Source: Candidatus Aenigmatarchaeota archaeon
GTDB taxonomy: Archaea; Aenigmatarchaeota; Aenigmatarchaeia; CG10238-14; SpSt-28
Direction of reading: 5' to 3'
Length of the DNA stretch: 64,000 nt
Assembly (NCBI GenBank): GCA_032249395.1
Contig: JAVVFY010000002.1
Span: 4,239-68,238, forward strand
Part shown: positions 8,618 through 16,640 of the stretch, in pieces
Position numbering within the stretch: position 1 is the stretch's first letter
Layout: the number at the start of each line of letters is the position of its first letter
Notes under the pieces: generated by a model
Seen by the model: the letters and a program-made list of their open reading frames with translations, nothing else
Told to the model about the DNA's origin: nothing
Database searches by the model: none
Made by a program: the position numbers and the translations under genes

Positions 8618-9469
8618 ATGGGCGTGATATCTTTTATAAAGAAAATATTATTTGGAGAAAAACAACCTGAACGATTCAGCGATTCACAGCGATTTGAATC
8701 GATGAATCAATTGATTCGTATCGATTTGAATCGAGCTGAATCGGAAAGAATCGAGCTGAATCGAGCTGAATCGATGAATCAATCGATTGAATCGCCCAAA
8801 TCAACAATTATCTCTAGCGAAAAGGAGGAAAAACCAACAATTTCTATCGATAAAGAATCTCTTAAGGTTGGCATGGCAGCTGGCTATATCTCACGCTCCC
8901 TAATAAGTATAGAAGATGGAATAGAAAGGATAGAAATTTCAATGCCATCCAAAGAATGGATAACCATGAACATTCTTCCAAAAATAGAGCAAGTACAACA
9001 AGCAATATACAACATAAGGGAAATCCTAATGGATCATGAAAGAAACGAGGAAAAAAGATTTGAAGTATTATTAGAAGCAATAAACAAACTAAAAACTATG
9101 GCACCCTCACTACCAGAACCGATAAAAACTGAAATTTTATCTACAGTTGCGTCATTGAAATCTGCTACCCTAACTCCCAAAATGCAACAAATTCTCGACA
9201 TTCTCAAAGAAAGAAGAGAAATTAGTTACCAAGAACTTGCTGAAAAACTTGGAATAACAACAGATGGTCTAAGAGGTATACTCTCCAGAATGGTAAAAGT
9301 ATGTGACGAAATCGAGCGATTTGAAAAAGATGGTAAGGGATGGATAAGAATTAAATCGATTCAAAGCGATTTGAATCGATCAGAATCGCTAGATCAAAGC
9401 AGTAGACTAGAAATAAAAGAACAAAAAGAGGAAAATAAGGAAAATAAAGACCTTTCAGATATGCCATAA
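8618..9469 (+). CDS. winged-helix DNA-binding protein whose coding sequence carries GAATCGA motif clusters
   Basis: C-terminal wHTH ISYQELAEKLGITTDGLRGILSRM. The nucleotide motif clusters encode repeated RAES/NRAE peptide units. Confidence 0.5.
   Translation: MGVISFIKKILFGEKQPERFSDSQRFESMNQLIRIDLNRAESERIELNRAESMNQSIESPKSTIISSEKEEKPTISIDKESLKVGMAAGYISRSLISIEDGIERIEISMPSKEWITMNILPKIEQVQQAIYNIREILMDHERNEEKRFEVLLEAINKLKTMAPSLPEPIKTEILSTVASLKSATLTPKMQQILDILKERREISYQELAEKLGITTDGLRGILSRMVKVCDEIERFEKDGKGWIRIKSIQSDLNRSESLDQSSRLEIKEQKEENKENKDLSDMP
8672..8794. repeat. cluster of GAATCG(A)/CGATTC motifs including six phased 10-bp units (8721-8780)
   Basis: At least 12 copies of the hexamer/octamer in both orientations. 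8721-8780 reads as six units of pattern TCGAnnnGAA, for example TCGAGCTGAA. Confidence 0.75.
9308..9392. repeat. second cluster of the same GAATCGA/TCGATTC motif at the 3' end of the gene
   Basis: Contains AATCGAGCGATTTGA and AAATCGATTCAAAGCGATTTGAATCGATCAGAATCGC. Confidence 0.7.
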
Positions 9470-9667: not shown

Positions 9668-10507
9668 ATGGAGGGAATCGAAAACATAGCAAAGATTCTT
9701 TGGAATTTGGGAATAACAATAACGAAAATAGAGAAAAATCGAATTTATGCAAAAGACTCTAACGGAGAGTTATTGATAAGAATTAGCAATGTCGGACCAA
9801 AAATCAAAACCTACGATAAGAGGATTATAGTTATTTCGCCGTACGCTGCAAAAAGAATTGAGGAGGAAAGAATGAAGAAAATAATAGAAGGATACTCACA
9901 ACCAGTATTCGTAAACAAGAAAAATCTCGAAGAGCTAGCCCCATCAACTCTATTCAAGATAGTAAATTATCTCAAGGAAAATCCTAATACTTACATAAAG
10001 AAGATCTCAGAAGACTTGAAAATTCACCCAGAGATAGTTAGAAGAAATTTGATAAAGATAAAAGATTACCTAGAAATAAAAGAATTTGAAAGTGGAATGA
10101 GTTTGCCAAAATTACCAAAGCTAATTTCTTTAAAAGAAGAAATACCTCCTGAAAAACTAACTGAACTCTCTAAAAATAAAATATCAATTTTACCAACTAG
10201 AAATAAAAGAAAAAGAAGAATTAGATACGAAAAAACAAGTAAATCTGAGGCCTTGTTTAAAGTACTGAAGTTTATAGAGGAAAACCCGGGAACTTACCTA
10301 AGAGAAATCTCACGAGAATTGAAAATATCTCCTTCTTTAGTTTACTCTTGTTTAAAAGAGGTAAACGAATTTCTAGAGCTCTCATCTCCCATAGGAAAAG
10401 AAGATATCGAACTACCAAATTTGCCGATTTCCATAAAGCTAAAACAAGGTTATACAGCTGAGGGAATTATAAGATACTTAAGATTCAGAAGAATGCTAAA
10501 GTTTTGA
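9668..10507 (+). CDS. protein with two winged-helix HTH domains, hypothetical regulator
   Basis: Two internal repeats: ENPNTYIKKISEDLKIHPEIVRRNL and ENPGTYLREISRELKISPSLVYSCL. Confidence 0.45.
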   Translation: MEGIENIAKILWNLGITITKIEKNRIYAKDSNGELLIRISNVGPKIKTYDKRIIVISPYAAKRIEEERMKKIIEGYSQPVFVNKKNLEELAPSTLFKIVNYLKENPNTYIKKISEDLKIHPEIVRRNLIKIKDYLEIKEFESGMSLPKLPKLISLKEEIPPEKLTELSKNKISILPTRNKRKRRIRYEKTSKSEALFKVLKFIEENPGTYLREISRELKISPSLVYSCLKEVNEFLELSSPIGKEDIELPNLPISIKLKQGYTAEGIIRYLRFRRMLKF

Positions 10508-11585: not shown

Positions 11586-12224
11586 ATGGAAAAATATTTT
11601 GGGGAATTTAAAAATTTTCTAGGAAGAAGAATTCTTGATGTAGCCTGTGGTGTTGGATTATTTTCATTTTGGTTAGAGCAAAAAGGTTATGAAGTGGTCG
11701 GAGTTGATATAAACAAAAAAATGATAGAACTGGTGCTAAAAACAAAAAAGAAATATAAATTTAAATCTCAGTTTTTGTTAAGCGATGCGACAAATGTAAA
11801 ACTAGAAGGAGAATTTGATAGTGCAGTCATTTTTGGAAATACTCTTTTCGTTCTTTCACCAAAAACTTTTGTCAACATAATCAAAAACGTTAAGAAGCAT
11901 TTTAAGGAAAATGGCTATGTAATTATAAACTATAGAAGTTTGTTGGAGAAATTGGTAAATAAAGAATGGAAAGATGTATACTTTGATTCAGAGAGAATAG
12001 CTAGCTTTAATTTAAAGTATGATGACTCCAATGCTGGAATAACTAAGCTATATGTAGATCTGAATGGGGAGAAACTACCAATCAAAGAAACATTTTATGT
12101 ATGGTCAAGTGGATTTTTAGAGGCAATAATGGAAGCTTTAGGTTTTGTTTTAGTAAAAAGAATTAAAACTGAAGTTAGCATGTGCGAAGTTATGGATATT
12201 TATCAACTAAAATCAAAAGAGTGA
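11586..12224 (+). CDS. class I SAM-dependent methyltransferase
   Basis: ILDVACGVGLFSFWLEQKGYEVVGVDIN is motif I of the Rossmann-fold methyltransferases. Confidence 0.6.
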   Translation: MEKYFGEFKNFLGRRILDVACGVGLFSFWLEQKGYEVVGVDINKKMIELVLKTKKKYKFKSQFLLSDATNVKLEGEFDSAVIFGNTLFVLSPKTFVNIIKNVKKHFKENGYVIINYRSLLEKLVNKEWKDVYFDSERIASFNLKYDDSNAGITKLYVDLNGEKLPIKETFYVWSSGFLEAIMEALGFVLVKRIKTEVSMCEVMDIYQLKSKE

Positions 12225-12402
12225 AATTACAGAATTCTAGCAATAACAGAAGTTGATATATAAGTTTTGCTATAAGATTATTCTAATTTGATTTCAACTT
12301 TCTTCATAAGCTAAAGATAAATCGCATACAGTCCCAAGTACTCTCCCCAGAAAGGATTTTTATATGGCACTTACAATTTAACATTAGTAAATATAAATTA
12401 AG

Positions 12403-14424
12403 GTGGTAATAATGAAAGATAGAGATAAATTAAATGAATGTAATTTGATTACAAAAGCAAGAGACATAAGAAGATTAAGCGAAGAGGAATTTTTGTCTTT
12501 AACTAATCAAATAAAAGAACTAACAAAGAATTTTACTGAATTTAAGCAACTAATCAAAGAGAATAGTCAGATTTTGTTGATAATTAGATGTCTCACCGGA
12601 ATGAAAAGAAAAGATTTTGCTAGTGCTATAGGAATTAACGAAGAAATTTTAAGACAAATAGAAGTTGGTAGAAGGAAAATTAAAAATGAGAGTAAAATCG
12701 ATAAGATAAGCAAGAATTTGGAAGAAATTTTCTCTAAAATTTCTGAAATAAGCGTTGAAAATGCATTAGAGCTTTTCAAAGAAGTAGCAATCCCAACCGA
12801 TAATGAAAAAGTAGAGAAGATTAGAAGCGAGTTGGAAGAAATAAGCCTGCCCGAAGACCTTAGAAAAATGGATGAAGAACAATTTTTGAAAGTTTTTGAA
12901 TGGTTGAAAGAAAAAACAAATAACTTTAAGATTTTCCCAGAAGAGGTCTTTTTAGCAAAAAATCAGCTTATCCTAATTTTGAGGTGCGCTTTGGGAATGA
13001 CTAGACCTAGTTTTGCAAGAAAAGTTGGAATATTTCAAGAAACGTTAAGACATGTAGAAGCTGGGAGAAAAGGTCTACAGTTTTCACAAAAAACAGTCGA
13101 AGATTGGTGTAGAAAAATAAATGAATTTTTAAAAACCCAAGAAATCTCTCCGAATATCGAAAAATCGTTATCTATTTGGAAAGAAATAAGCATTCACCAA
13201 ACAGAAGAAAACATAACAGAAATAGAAAAAATAAAAAGCGAGATGAATAAGCTTGGATTGATTGACTGGGATAAAAAAGATTCAAAAATTTTACCTGAAT
13301 TTTTCAATTTCTTTAGAGAAAAAACAAATAACTTTACTATATTCCCAATTTCTCTTTTTCTAGCGGATAGTAGTCTATCGATATTTTTCATTAGATGTTG
13401 CAACGGAATGACGCAAAAGGAATTGGCAGAAAAAATTGGATGTACAAAAGATCTTATTAGACATCTAGAGAACAAACACGGAAGAATTGTGCATGCAGGA
13501 CCAGCACTAAGATGGATAAATAAATTACAAGCATTGCTGCCAAAAAACATAAATTTCGAAAAATTCGAACAAAATTGGAAGAAAATAATTTTTTCGAAGA
13601 TTGAAAATATAGAGAAAAAAGAATCTTTCAAAAGTTTATCTACAGAAGCAATTATTAGCAAAATAGAAGAATTGAAATCAAGAACAAACAATTTTAATGA
13701 GATAAGGGAAGTTTTAGAGAATGATGCTAGGAATATTTTCTTATTTAGAGTAATATGCAGAAAAAGAACAAAAGAACTGGCAAGAATATTAAAAATTGAA
13801 CCAAGCGAATTAAGGAGCTGGGAAGATGGGAAAAGAAGAATAAGTCCAGAAACGTTAGAAAAAATCGCTCCAATTCTGAAAGAAATGCTTAGAGATATTA
13901 AGATAGAGAAGGAGACAATATTAAGGAATTTAAAAGATATAAAAAAAGGTAAGATTTGTTTTAATAAAGATATACAAGTAAAAAATGGTATCAAGTTAGT
14001 TGAAAAACTTCCACCGACCGAATTAGAAAATAAAGTAATAAAAGTTCTGTCATCCAATAATATTCCATTCGAACTTCACGCTACAATAGATTTCAATGGT
14101 AAGTTCTTTAACGTAGATTTTGCTATTCCAAATTCACAGAAACCAAAAATAATAATTGAAGTTTTTGAGTCAAAAAGTAGTAATAGAAATTTAAAGACTA
14201 AATTAATAGTTACTGACCATAGATTTGTGGTTTTAAAAAGCAATAAACCGGATTTGAAAACTGCTATGATAGGTGAAACTAAATCTTTACTAACGGAAGA
14301 GTGGAGAGAACATATGCTTAAAGAAATTATAGCAACTGATTTTATAGTTTTAGGAGATAATGAGGATGTAGAATCCTCAATAAAAGATACTTTACTTAGT
14401 TTCATAAAAACCAACTTACAATGA
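12403..14424 (+). CDS. tetra-HTH (XRE-like) repeat protein with C-terminal PD-(D/E)xK nuclease-like domain
   Basis: Four modules, each beginning xxxKTNNF and followed by an HTH (LRCALGMTRPSFARKVGIFQETLRHVEAGRKG; CCNGMTQKELAEKIGCTKDLIRHLE and similar). The C-terminal VDFAIPNSQKPKIIIEVFESK resembles the Hjc/restriction-enzyme D...ExK core. Confidence 0.45.
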   Translation: MVIMKDRDKLNECNLITKARDIRRLSEEEFLSLTNQIKELTKNFTEFKQLIKENSQILLIIRCLTGMKRKDFASAIGINEEILRQIEVGRRKIKNESKIDKISKNLEEIFSKISEISVENALELFKEVAIPTDNEKVEKIRSELEEISLPEDLRKMDEEQFLKVFEWLKEKTNNFKIFPEEVFLAKNQLILILRCALGMTRPSFARKVGIFQETLRHVEAGRKGLQFSQKTVEDWCRKINEFLKTQEISPNIEKSLSIWKEISIHQTEENITEIEKIKSEMNKLGLIDWDKKDSKILPEFFNFFREKTNNFTIFPISLFLADSSLSIFFIRCCNGMTQKELAEKIGCTKDLIRHLENKHGRIVHAGPALRWINKLQALLPKNINFEKFEQNWKKIIFSKIENIEKKESFKSLSTEAIISKIEELKSRTNNFNEIREVLENDARNIFLFRVICRKRTKELARILKIEPSELRSWEDGKRRISPETLEKIAPILKEMLRDIKIEKETILRNLKDIKKGKICFNKDIQVKNGIKLVEKLPPTELENKVIKVLSSNNIPFELHATIDFNGKFFNVDFAIPNSQKPKIIIEVFESKSSNRNLKTKLIVTDHRFVVLKSNKPDLKTAMIGETKSLLTEEWREHMLKEIIATDFIVLGDNEDVESSIKDTLLSFIKTNLQ

Positions 14425-14446
14425 AAGATTGGATGTATTGAAGATT

Positions 14447-14842
14447 TTACACTCGACGACCCCTACGCCCGCCTTTCCTACGCATATATCCATGAACTAT
14501 TGGTGTAACATCTTCAATTAAACCTATTTTTAATCCAGCTTTTGCAAGAGCTCTTATAGCAGCTTGTGCTCCAGGTCCAGGAATTTTTGTCTTTATGCCT
14601 CCTGGAGCTCTAACTCTTATGTGCACCCCAGTAATTCCTTTAGCTAAAGCTTCTTCAGCGGCTTTCTTAGCAGCTAGCATAGCAGGGAAAGGCATCCCTC
14701 CCTCTCTATCCTTATCTGTCATCATTCCGCTAGAATACCTTGCTATTGTTTCAGCTCCACTCAAGTCTGTAATGTGAACTATTGTAGAATTAGGACTACT
14801 AAAAATGTGAGCTACCCCCCATCTCTCTTTCTTTTCACTCAT
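14447..14842 (-). CDS. rps11: 30S ribosomal protein S11 (uS11)
   Basis: [24 protein letters not shown]...SSGMM matches uS11. Confidence 0.85.
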
Positions 14843-15385
14843 CTAACCACCCTCTTTAACCTCAACGCTAACTTCAGCTTTGGGCTGTTGTGTTGGTTGT
14901 TCTTGTACTGTTGCTTTTGATGTATTTGGTTTTATGTCGCATGTTATTTTATCTTCTTCATCTCTACTAACCAAATAGCTTGGATATACAATCCTTCTTC
15001 CGTTAATTCTTACATGCCCATGGACGATAAACTGTCTTGCCTGCTTTATTGTATTTGCCAAACCCTTTTTATAAACAATAGTTTGTAATCTTCTATTCAA
15101 CAAGTCTTTAACAGTTAGGCTCAAAACATCATCTAGAGTGGCGCTTGGAGACGGTAATAAACCAAGCCTATACAACTTTTGAATCAAAACTTTCTCTTTT
15201 TCCTTATCTCTTCTTGCGTTTAACTCTCTAGCCATCCTTCTATACTTTCTTAACTCTTCCTTAGCTCTCCATAGTTCCTTTTTCCTTCTCAATCCAAATT
15301 CTATCATTATTCTTCTCTCTTCTTCCAATAGCTTCTTATCCCAAAGTTTCCTCGGCTTTTTATACTTTTTTCTAAATCTCTTCAT
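14843..15385 (-). CDS. rps4: 30S ribosomal protein S4 (uS4)
   Basis: RLQTIVYKKGLANTIKQARQFIVHGHVRINGRRIV is the uS4 S4 domain. Confidence 0.85.
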   Translation of the reverse strand: MKRFRKKYKKPRKLWDKKLLEEERRIMIEFGLRRKKELWRAKEELRKYRRMARELNARRDKEKEKVLIQKLYRLGLLPSPSATLDDVLSLTVKDLLNRRLQTIVYKKGLANTIKQARQFIVHGHVRINGRRIVYPSYLVSRDEEDKITCDIKPNTSKATVQEQPTQQPKAEVSVEVKEGG

Positions 15386-15391
15386 CGCTCA

Positions 15392-15994
15392 TCACTTCTT
15401 TTCTTCTTTCTTTTCTTTGGATTGCTGTTGAGCCAATTGTTTCATCTTTCCCCTCAAAACACCAACAGTCCTTCCATGTCTAAAATGACTTCTAGTCCTT
15501 TGACCCCTCACAGGCTGGCCATACATATGTCTAAAACCTTTGTAAGTTTTAAGCTCAATTTCTCTTTTTATATCCATACTTCTGAAAATATCAACATCAG
15601 GTCCGACCAAATGCATATCTAGCCCTGTTTCTGGATCTTTTCTTCTGTTAAATAAAAATGAAGGAATGTTATATTTTGCTGGATTTTTCAAACAATCTTC
15701 AATTTTTTCTATCTCCTCCGGGGTTAAAGTTCCTAACTTTCTATAAGCATCCAAACCAAGAGCAGCTATCACAGCCTTAGAAAAAGTGTAACTTACGCCT
15801 TTAATTCCGGTTAACCCGTAAAGAATATTTTTGTTAGCATCTAAGTCTGTATTTAAAATTCTAATTATTCCCTCTATTCTTTTTTCGGCTTTCTTTGGTT
15901 TTTTAATTTCTTCTTTGGGTTTTTCTTTTTTCTTTTTTTCCTCTTCAGCTTTTTCTTTTTCTTTTTCTATGTCTTTAACTCTAGATACTCCCAT
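15392..15994 (-). CDS. rps13: 30S ribosomal protein S13 (uS13) with K/E-rich N-terminal extension
   Basis: ILNTDLDANKNILYGLTGIKGVSYTFSKAVI matches uS13. Confidence 0.85.
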   Translation of the reverse strand: MGVSRVKDIEKEKEKAEEEKKKKEKPKEEIKKPKKAEKRIEGIIRILNTDLDANKNILYGLTGIKGVSYTFSKAVIAALGLDAYRKLGTLTPEEIEKIEDCLKNPAKYNIPSFLFNRRKDPETGLDMHLVGPDVDIFRSMDIKREIELKTYKGFRHMYGQPVRGQRTRSHFRHGRTVGVLRGKMKQLAQQQSKEKKEEKK

Positions 15995-16031: not shown

Positions 16032-16640
16032 TCATCTTTTTTTCTTAATGAAATTAATAATAGTTGTTTTACTTAGCCTATCAGCAATCTTTAAAGCTTT
16101 AGGATAATTGAAGTTTACCATTTTAAGAAAAACCTCCAAGCTTTCCATATCTATGTTAGAACCTATGCTTGCATAATATCTACCAAATTTTATACCAACT
16201 TTTTGCTGATCAACAAAAATGTAACTATCTTTTATTTCTCCGTAAAGAAAACTTTTTGCTATTCCAATTGTTGGTTTTCCAGTTAATATTCCTATTATAG
16301 TTGCTAAGCCCGCTTTTCTAGGATGAGCTAATCCATGGCCATCAACGAGGATTAAATCATAATCTTTATCTATTTTTTCAACAGCTTCTAACATTATTGG
16401 CGCTTCTCTAAGAAAAAGCAAACCAGGAATGTAAGGAAATTTAACTCTCTCTTTAACTAACAGCTCCTTCAAAACTTTTTCTTGTTTTAAATCATAAAGA
16501 ACGGCTGCACAAAAAGCTAAATCATCTTTATAAGAAATATCTAAAGCCAAAACCTTTTCAATGTTTTTTACTTTTTTGAATTCAACTAGCTTGCTTAAAA
16601 CTTTCTGAAGCTTAAAATAAAACTTTGTATTAACATTCAT
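16032..16640 (-). CDS. nfi: endonuclease V
   Basis: YIPGLLFLREAP...ILVDGHGLAHPRKAGLATIIGILTGKPTIGIAKS contains the conserved Nfi motifs. Confidence 0.8.
   Translation of the reverse strand: MNVNTKFYFKLQKVLSKLVEFKKVKNIEKVLALDISYKDDLAFCAAVLYDLKQEKVLKELLVKERVKFPYIPGLLFLREAPIMLEAVEKIDKDYDLILVDGHGLAHPRKAGLATIIGILTGKPTIGIAKSFLYGEIKDSYIFVDQQKVGIKFGRYYASIGSNIDMESLEVFLKMVNFNYPKALKIADRLSKTTIINFIKKKR

Follow-up and report, generated by a model that had tools for sequence, protein, structure and literature searches.

The 64,000-nucleotide stretch of contig JAVVFY010000002.1 analysed here (hereafter the window), from a Candidatus Aenigmatarchaeota archaeon, contains an open reading frame (ORF) of 673 codons that encodes four helix-turn-helix (HTH) modules of the XRE type followed by a C-terminal nuclease-fold domain, and that converges on the ribosomal protein gene rps11. 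We propose, tentatively and with somewhat less than even confidence, that this HTH-nuclease gene is a free-standing, homing-endonuclease-like selfish element that resides in a hot-spring aenigmatarchaeon's chromosome and targets the 3' end of rps11. A site-specific selfish nuclease gene of the homing type lies outside the options raised by a first-pass annotation of the sequence (a sequence-guided nuclease, a defence or addiction component, or a regulator derived from one). The evidence points to it because the fold and its acidic triad, the HTH array, the fixed address, the empty and decayed copies, the exchanged alleles, the purifying selection and the recoding of rps11 match the free-standing homing genes of T4-like phages. 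We hold more doubtfully the wider claim that 1 to 4 XRE-HTH modules steer a PD-(D/E)xK nuclease to the 3' end of rps11, an essential gene, in an unrecognised free-standing homing endonuclease family of cellular archaeal chromosomes, the rival alleles and the recoding reflecting an ongoing arms race at one site throughout a DPANN phylum. Nuclease activity, the position of the target and homing itself are what we infer from these features.

The first-pass annotation had remarked that the gene sits where rpoD should follow rps11, and this proved the most informative clue, as in relatives the gene lies exactly between the two. Loci of the subfamily carrying a DH(R/K)F motif were gathered in four independent ways (exact-protein look-up, genome scan, rps11-anchored metagenome scan and cluster look-up), and the members retrieved for location carry one to four HTH modules. 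All 30-odd members examined are antisense to rps11 and converge on its stop codon, at distances ranging from an 18-bp overlap to a gap of about 130 bp and mostly within 30 bp. The linkage of rps11 and rpoD is otherwise near-universal in archaea. rpoD is found on the far side of the gene in L005, L006, L012, L046, L059, L063, L065, L080 and L093, so the gene is wedged inside an otherwise contiguous rps13-rps4-rps11-rpoD operon. No rpoD homologue was detectable across the 64-kb window. In the window's clade rpoD has moved away and the far flank is variable, with differing neighbours in the rearranged region downstream of rps11 (L001, L002, L015, L016 and L018), while the rps11 junction is constant. 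No partner gene is conserved: the neighbours on the side away from rps11 vary by locus, and the methyltransferase gene adjoining the window's copy is missing from most loci. Rfam and tRNA scans of the locus were empty, ruling out a tRNA-type integration site or a known RNA element. In four loci a small ORF of 62-120 aa separates rpoD from the two- or three-module gene (L005 919-1281, L006 1064-1270, L008 665-853 and L093 4525-4812); the one in L006 is a frameshifted first half of an HTH module.

Occupation of this site is polymorphic. Among the 80 loci whose ribosomal protein S11 is closest to that of the window, rpoD directly follows rps11 in 43 (median spacing of about 27 bp), 22 are occupied, and the rest are rearranged or cut by a contig end. 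Occupied and empty loci are interleaved on a rough tree of S11 (131 aa), giving a patchy distribution. L016 is empty (38 bp) and its counterpart L022 carries a 2305-bp insert that begins at the rps11 stop codon; between the flanks there are 16 bp in L075 versus 1322 bp in L046, and 19 bp in L057 versus 1312 bp in L063. L061 is a 1157-bp deletion derivative in which only about 133 bp of the nuclease 3' end are left. Some loci scored as empty have rps11-rpoD gaps of 260-800 bp, and these hold no detectable remnants, L019 excepted.

About 12 of the approximately 26 assessable occupied loci are disrupted, and the adjoining ribosomal protein genes are intact. The disrupted loci include frameshifted or fragmented copies (L006, L010/L013, L027, L035, L036 and L066), 5'-truncated copies (L031 and L032) and remnants (L019 and L061). 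Two further copies, in L012 (6574-6576) and L063 (4660-4662), have a single in-frame stop with both halves otherwise intact, which may reflect nonsense mutation as the copy decays or, possibly, read-through or recoding. Intact copies have a ratio of nonsynonymous to synonymous substitution (dN/dS) of 0.10-0.41, with dS near saturation, indicating purifying selection.

The history of the gene disagrees with that of its flanks. The proteins encoded by neighbouring genes (endonuclease V, a PP-loop ATPase and the methyltransferase) are 74-92% identical to those of the window, and the HTH modules and nuclease domain are 27-77% identical. We distinguished at least four allele classes (window/L039/L027; L011/L017/L002; the three-module L014/L029; and L001), and unrelated classes (26-35% identity) occur within flanks that are 84-96% identical, with sharp cassette boundaries. 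Several alleles co-occur in single hot-spring samples, as in Ga0080004 with L014, L027 and L039. L029 and L002, for example, have flanks that are 96% identical and HTH-nuclease proteins that are 31% identical. L014 and the window are 87% identical in the flanks (92% in the methyltransferase) and only 33% identical in the HTH-nuclease protein, which has three modules in L014 versus four in the window; between L014 and L029 the values are 84% for the flanks and 69% for the protein. At the DNA level, the window and L014 are 83% identical up to the rps11 stop codon (14448), have no homology inside the cassette, and are 92% identical again from 12432 leftwards, a tract comprising the first ~10 codons of the gene, the intergenic or upstream region (12225-12432) and the methyltransferase gene. 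As homology ends after about 10 codons, the 5' recombination boundary of the cassette is just inside the ORF. Alleles are mosaics, since L011 matches the window at 96% nucleotide identity over module 2 alone. The cassette ends of the window, L022 and L046 showed neither terminal inverted repeats nor target-site duplications, and the Pfam search gave no transposase domains; an insertion sequence or transposon was rejected on these grounds.

A synonymous footprint in rps11 itself accompanies occupation. We compared codon usage in the last 12 codons of rps11 with that of the gene body in 26 non-redundant occupied loci and in 39 loci with rpoD adjacent. In occupied loci, CGN codons make up 54% of arginine codons in the tail versus 9% in the gene body (paired Wilcoxon p=2.5e-5), and GC content at third positions (GC3) of non-arginine codons is 0.50 versus 0.27 (p=6e-5). 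The corresponding differences in rpoD-adjacent loci are both non-significant (CGN 23% versus 19%; GC3 0.39 versus 0.34). In the window, 4 of the 6 arginine codons in the tail are CGN, versus 0 of 6 in the rest of the gene, and empty loci of the window's clade (L015, L016, L018, L021 and L023) have 0/6 CGN in the tail. The three-module class L014, L029 and L020 retains an unrecoded central 'GGA AGA AGA GG'. Recoding of this kind would be expected if the target is the 3' end of rps11 and carriers are protected, or if the tract is co-converted with the cassette.

We also observed that positions 14424-14452 of the window repeat, inverted and nearly unchanged, a segment inside rps11 (14503-14518, which encodes ..IGLIEDVTP). 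The two arms, complementary at 15 of 16 positions, bracket the 50-nt recoded tail. The repeat is also present downstream of rps11 in L002, L027, L001 and L032 and missing from most other loci; in L002 it reaches 42 nt and codes for the HTH-nuclease's own C-terminal tail (z=5.1 versus shuffles). Possible explanations are a remnant of insertion or repair, a hairpin or cruciform structure, or coincidence. We settle on none of them because, outside the window, the repeat is strong in just a few alleles.

The protein combines a repeated DNA-binding region with one nuclease-like domain. Four tandem XRE-type modules, as the first-pass annotation had read them, were recovered: Pfam HTH_3 (PF01381) matches four separate stretches (E=3e-19, 69.2 bits versus a cutoff of 23), HTH_31, HTH_19 and HTH_26 likewise exceed their Pfam cutoffs, and self-alignment and a module hidden Markov model (HMM) resolved four modules of about 125 aa. 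The full-length AlphaFold model agrees with the modules locally (predicted local distance difference test, pLDDT, 84.7) and does not fix their arrangement relative to one another (predicted template-modelling score, pTM, 0.44). Each module consists of an N-terminal helix (DLRKMxEEQF..WLKEKT) terminating in (E/S)(K/R)T(N/K)NF, the NNF motif, the XRE HTH and two more helices. The TNNF element is therefore not the start of a module, as had been suggested, because the N-terminal helix precedes it. Fold neighbours of a single module include the restriction-modification controller protein C.BclI. Weak NCBIfam likeness to Wmk, HipB and aMBF1 reflects the HTH alone, with scores far under the cutoffs (aMBF1, TIGR00270, 19.7 bits versus 110; Wmk, 24.5 versus 300). 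An aMBF1-like or ribosome-binding role, suggested by the JGI label on relative P0016 and by the ribosomal protein neighbours, was rejected, since its score falls far short of the cutoff and the gene runs antisense, is dispensable and has its alleles swapped.

The C-terminal domain is supported as having a PD-(D/E)xK fold on the basis of structural modelling. A model of the domain built with 13 homologues (pLDDT 88.5, pTM 0.83) has the topology alpha-beta-beta-beta-alpha-beta-alpha-beta-alpha, which contains the PD-(D/E)xK core. A Foldseek search against PDB placed the Can2 nuclease domain at the top (E=2.6e-4, TM 0.55), followed by matches to Cdn1, Card1, the R2-element restriction-like endonuclease, XPF/Hef/Mus81/FANCM, Ecl18kI and EcoT38I; small GTPases among the matches are alpha/beta noise. 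Against a library of viral structures there were 22 matches at E<=1e-3, and all that carry a name are either endonucleases of the PD-(D/E)XK, DUF559, Vsr or mismatch type or restriction enzymes; among the fold matches in this library are a Vsr homing endonuclease associated with a group I intron and a phage HTH_XRE-nuclease protein of 256 aa. Sequence comparison gave nothing above threshold for this domain in Pfam, NCBIfam, PADLOC or PDB, with E>=0.15 throughout the PDB sequence and profile searches, and no Pfam match to Hjc, Vsr or DUF559 in the query or 42 relatives. Sub-threshold Pfam signals among the 42 relatives were to HSDR_N_2 (5), EcoRII-C (3), AHJR-like (1) and DUF7431 (1), the last of which was dropped as an identity (19.9 bits versus a cutoff of 27, in that single relative). 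The fold assignment gains support because the weak HSDR_N_2, EcoRII-C, AHJR-like and T7 endonuclease I signals share one superfamily. Of the earlier description as an Hjc- or restriction-like nuclease, the PD-(D/E)xK fold is upheld by the model and Foldseek; the Hjc part lacks a Pfam match, and the fold neighbours are generic or Vsr/DUF559-like.

Conservation was counted in 79 family sequences and in 23 sequences of the rps11-linked subfamily. The acidic triad E542, D572 and E586 is kept in 78-79 of the 79 although the sequences are only 21-57% identical, and each residue is present in 23/23 of the subfamily. The triad is spaced (30 and 14 residues) much as in Hjc and T7 endonuclease I; with the latter there is a weak profile match, which aligns E542 and D572 with E20 and D55, residues that we take to be catalytic. 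The first-pass annotation had proposed a D...ExK core, and its acidic half holds (D572 and E586 in 79/79); the lysine does not, as K591 of EVFESK is a lysine in only 8/23 subfamily sequences and the subfamily has no beta-3 lysine. Distant family members retain a canonical ExK (EAK, EVK, ELK or ECK). In the following helix, D605-H606-(R/K)607-F608 and K612 are essentially invariant across the subfamily, and K/R600, R/K607 and K612 are each basic in 23/23 (K612 in 74/79 and R/K607 in 78/79 of the family). It is possible that the basic residue has been relocated to this helix in place of the beta-3 lysine.

Most of the homing endonuclease genes known so far belong to introns, inteins, phages and organelles. 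Under the reading of the HTH-nuclease gene as a homing-type selfish element, the four HTH modules would act as beads on a string that read a long asymmetric site at or near the rps11 3' end in genomes without the gene or with another allele. The PD-(D/E)xK domain would cut or nick there, with E542, D572 and E586 binding metal and K/R600, R/K607 or K612 supplying the basic residue. Recombinational repair off an occupied chromosome would then copy the gene in, antisense and flush with the rps11 stop codon. The insertion, together with synonymous changes in the last ~12 codons of rps11, would shield occupied chromosomes. Allele classes that differ in their modules would compete and swap by recombination in the conserved flanks, and copies no longer homing would decay and then be deleted. 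What we found at the genomic level is one specific site in a conserved locus, empty alleles in close relatives, sharp boundaries, incongruence of gene and flanks, and degenerate copies; at the sequence level there are no Pfam or PDB matches to homing endonucleases, and the relation is one of fold.

Several observations weigh against this reading. Position 588, where the ExK lysine would be, is F, T or S in 23/23 subfamily sequences (F588 in the window), and because the beta-3 lysine is missing throughout the subfamily, the catalytic mechanism would have to be non-canonical or the domain could be inactive. The only pointer to a target site is the synonymous recoding, which linkage or co-conversion, GC-biased repair or constraints of convergent transcription could also produce, and L014 is intact and occupied yet shows no recoding of its rps11 tail. 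Forms with four or three modules are found mainly in a clade with S11 identity above 90% and two-module forms elsewhere (the three-module form is also found in L008 and L012, with S11 identities of 75-82%); module number tracking rps11 clades, together with purifying selection, fits vertical residence with a host function equally well. The interleaving of occupied and empty loci is drawn from a tree of 131 S11 residues, and some frameshifts may be assembly errors, as the two in L010 fall in A-runs. No relatives were found in viral contigs, phage records or plasmid records. To our knowledge, free-standing homing genes occur in phages and organelles and not in archaeal chromosomes, and homing needs DNA exchange between cells, of which we know of no documented case in these archaea. 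The homing reading is not rated higher because cleavage and target are predictions, the beta-3 lysine is missing and module number follows host clade.

Foremost among the alternatives, though unlikely in our estimate, is a host transcription or chromatin factor of the rps13-rps4-rps11/rpoD operon, in which the HTH array binds intergenic DNA. Such a factor might terminate, insulate or regulate convergent transcription and give rpoD its own promoter, and the nuclease fold would serve as an oligomerisation element or DNA clamp that may no longer cut. The place beside rps11 and rpoD, conserved phylum-wide, speaks for this, as do dN/dS of 0.1-0.4, the missing canonical ExK lysine and the correlation of module number with host clade; Pfam and JGI recognise only XRE regulators in the protein, and the HTH fold matches include C.BclI. 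The near-invariance of the triad at such low overall identity is hard to explain without catalysis or metal binding, however, and the gene is cleanly missing in close relatives and from most rps11 loci, with about half of the assessable copies broken. Nor would an operon factor account readily for unrelated allele classes in near-identical flanks, for a gene that stays by rps11 in the window's clade though rpoD is no longer adjacent, or for a recoded rps11 tail, which has no obvious regulatory rationale.

Rather less probable still is a nuclease that acts alone in defence or in telling self from non-self, such as a restriction-like enzyme guided by HTH modules or an addiction module, which would occupy a recombination hotspot downstream of rps11 and be hypervariable through an arms race with viruses or other mobile elements. 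The hypervariable mosaic alleles, the exchange of cassettes between lineages, the presence/absence polymorphism and the rearranged region downstream of rps11 in the window's clade all fit, CRISPR-ancillary nucleases and restriction enzymes are among the fold neighbours, and PADLOC HTH models match the HTH part. The nuclease domain has no PADLOC match, though, there is no conserved partner, and the adjoining methyltransferase is of a small-molecule or RNA type and absent from most loci; a restriction-modification system was rejected for lack of a conserved methyltransferase partner. Furthermore, all cassettes at the site belong to one family, not to mixed systems, and a single core-operon site across lineages with S11 identities of 68-99% is unlike a defence island. 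The recoding of the rps11 tail would be left without explanation. A structure-specific repair or recombination nuclease of the Hjc or T7 endonuclease I kind, tethered to HTH modules and here by historical accident, is very improbable: the triad spacing, the weak T7 endonuclease I match, the endonuclease V and Cas4-like PDDEXK_1 genes nearby in several relatives and the inverted repeat around the window's rps11 tail favour it, but no Hjc or resolvase family match reaches threshold, a repair gene is not expected to be dispensable, pseudogenised, allele-swapped and site-bound, and four sequence-reading HTH modules favour sequence over structure specificity.

The gene and its surroundings in the window, which is low-GC archaeal DNA (~31% GC), are listed in Table 1. 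The ATG at 12412, giving a protein of 670 aa, is more likely to be the start codon than the GTG that opens the ORF, because of the putative GGTGGT and TATA-like signals and because the database protein P0001 (99% identity) is 670 aa long and begins with MKDRDK. The linkage of endonuclease V to the ribosomal protein operon is kept in relatives (L001-L004), where a Cas4-like PDDEXK_1 gene lies further along. A pair of winged-helix (HTH_24/ArsR-like) genes encoding 283 and 279 aa (window 8618-9469 and 9668-10507, forward strand) recurs in L002 (139-990 and 1189-2028) with identical lengths.

Table 1. Features of the HTH-nuclease locus, in window coordinates; residue numbers count from the GTG codon.
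Feature	Position	Strand	Description
HTH-nuclease ORF	12403..14424	+	673 aa from GTG 12403; stop codon 14422-14424
Putative TATA-like TTTTTATATGG	12357-12367	+	By sequence inspection; inferred signal
Putative Shine-Dalgarno-like GGTGGT	12402-12407	+	By sequence inspection; inferred signal, 5' of ATG 12412
HTH module 1	12439..12807	+	aa 13-135; motif TKNF
HTH module 2	12832..13209	+	aa 144-269; LPEDLRKM..WLKEKTNNF..NQLILILRCALGMTRPSFARKVGI; most conserved module of the family
HTH module 3	13243..13608	+	aa 281-402
HTH module 4	13600..13959	+	aa 400-519
PD-(D/E)xK-fold nuclease-like domain	13966..14421	+	aa 522-673
E542	14026-14028	+	In helix 540-551; 78/79 relatives
D572 (VDF)	14116-14118	+	In strand 567-575; 79/79 relatives
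E586 (IIEV)	14158-14160	+	In strand 583-590; 79/79 relatives
Helix motif D605-H606-R607-F608..K612	K612 at 14236-14238	+	Conserved
Spacer	14425..14446		22 bp between the convergent stop codons of the HTH-nuclease gene and rps11
rps11	14447-14842	-	Convergent with the HTH-nuclease gene
rps11 stop codon and last 12 codons	14447..14485	-	Synonymously recoded in occupied loci; proposed target or immunity region
rps4	14843-15385	-	
rps13	15392-15994	-	
rps13-rps4-rps11 operon	14447..15994	-	Sole flank constant in every subfamily member
Class I S-adenosylmethionine methyltransferase gene	11586-12224	+	Generic Methyltransf_25/11 type; small-molecule/RNA-type
Endonuclease V gene	16032-16640	-	Directly upstream of the rps13-rps4-rps11 operon

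Only 68 relatives came out of an exhaustive HMMER search that covered 1.84 billion representatives, and a word-indexed profile search added none beyond these. Their lengths group at about 260, 395, 520 and 670 aa, corresponding to 1, 2, 3 and 4 HTH modules with one nuclease domain; two such domains occur in a few distant proteins, and some short entries are fragments. All relatives that bear an organism name are from Candidatus Aenigmatarchaeota, several come from Great Boiling Spring samples (85 C), and the metagenome-assembled genome 'Bin S16' is about 96% identical to the window. Distant relatives P0050, P0056 and P0068 sit away from rps11. P0056 (L095 1090-2553) has one HTH module and two nuclease domains and lies directly upstream of a FEN-1/XPG gene, P0050 (L097 475-1308 and 1419-2252) has a divergent neighbour of the same length (277 aa) that may be a paralogue, and P0068 (L096) retains a canonical ExK.

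That an array of HTH modules joined to a nuclease is not a described family, as first suggested from the sequence, agrees with our searches: Pfam, NCBIfam and PADLOC have no model for the nuclease domain (in PADLOC-DB the HTH part alone is matched, with 0 matches to the nuclease domain), the architecture is absent from the families of all three, and the literature searched yielded no paper on it or on the locus and nothing relevant on an archaeal free-standing homing endonuclease or an HTH-nuclease of Aenigmatarchaeota. The HTH-tethered PD-(D/E)xK nucleases described here form a new family. Their genomics are of the homing type, and neither the host (cellular DPANN archaea) nor the site (the rps11/rpoD junction) was to be expected. 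If the gene is a homing element, the range of such elements would extend into the core ribosomal protein/RNA polymerase operon of cellular archaea, regular DNA exchange and recombination among DPANN archaea would be implied, and the broken rps11-rpoD linkage in Aenigmatarchaeota would be explained. One to four reassorting HTH modules with one nuclease domain form a natural experiment in modular DNA recognition, of possible interest to enzyme engineers; if a separate DNA segment is read by each module, the family would be a naturally modular, re-assortable recognition system coupled to a nuclease. Should the selfish reading be wrong, this would still be an uncharacterised, phylum-specific family with a catalytic-looking triad, hypervariable alleles at one address and a synonymous footprint in rps11.

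Each part of the protein has counterparts in known systems. As in XRE/Cro-C1 regulators (restriction-modification controllers and the tandem-HTH Wmk of Wolbachia), every module contains a bona fide HTH_3; unlike these, the HTH-nuclease has four modules per chain, a family-specific N-terminal helix with TNNF, and a C-terminal nuclease-fold domain. With T7 endonuclease I/Hjc and Can2/Card1 it shares the alpha-beta-beta-beta-alpha-beta core, a glutamate in helix 1, an aspartate in beta-2 and a glutamate in beta-3 with Hjc-like spacing. Its Pfam matches are all sub-threshold, though, its subfamily lacks the ExK lysine, and it is fused to sequence-reading HTH modules, whereas those enzymes are structure-specific or activated by cyclic oligoadenylate. 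PD-(D/E)xK and Vsr-like EDxHD nucleases are recognised homing-endonuclease families (PMC6083498, PMC3239194). The restriction-endonuclease fold is shared with the PD-(D/E)xK homing enzyme I-Ssp6803I and the Vsr-like EDxHD homing enzyme I-Bth0305I (PMC6083498, PMC3239194, PMC3384342), and the neighbours in the viral library include an intron-associated VSR homing endonuclease, DUF559 and mismatch endonucleases. I-Ssp6803I and I-Bth0305I differ in being intron-encoded and without HTH arrays, and there is no detectable sequence similarity to them. The HTH-nuclease also lacks the contiguous EDxHD motif of Vsr-like enzymes, has another residue in place of the beta-3 lysine and conserves the DH(R/K)F..K helix.

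The closest parallel is with the free-standing homing genes of T4-like phages, for which location between conserved genes, flank co-conversion and immunity by target polymorphism are established (PMC2988022, PMC2790892). The HTH-nuclease differs from the T4 Seg (GIY-YIG) and Mob (HNH) endonucleases in its PD-(D/E)xK fold and in having 1-4 N-terminal XRE HTH modules versus NUMOD, zinc-finger or HTH pieces; it resides in a cellular archaeal chromosome, its gene lies antisense to the neighbouring genes, and its cleavage and homing are predicted. The genomic features of their 'intronless homing', namely a single gene between conserved genes, presence/absence, co-conversion of the flanks and defunct copies, are all seen here. 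Carriers of Seg and Mob genes are immune through target-site sequence differences, and the proteins are modular, with a nuclease and a tethered multi-part DNA-binding region (PMC2988022, PMC2790892).

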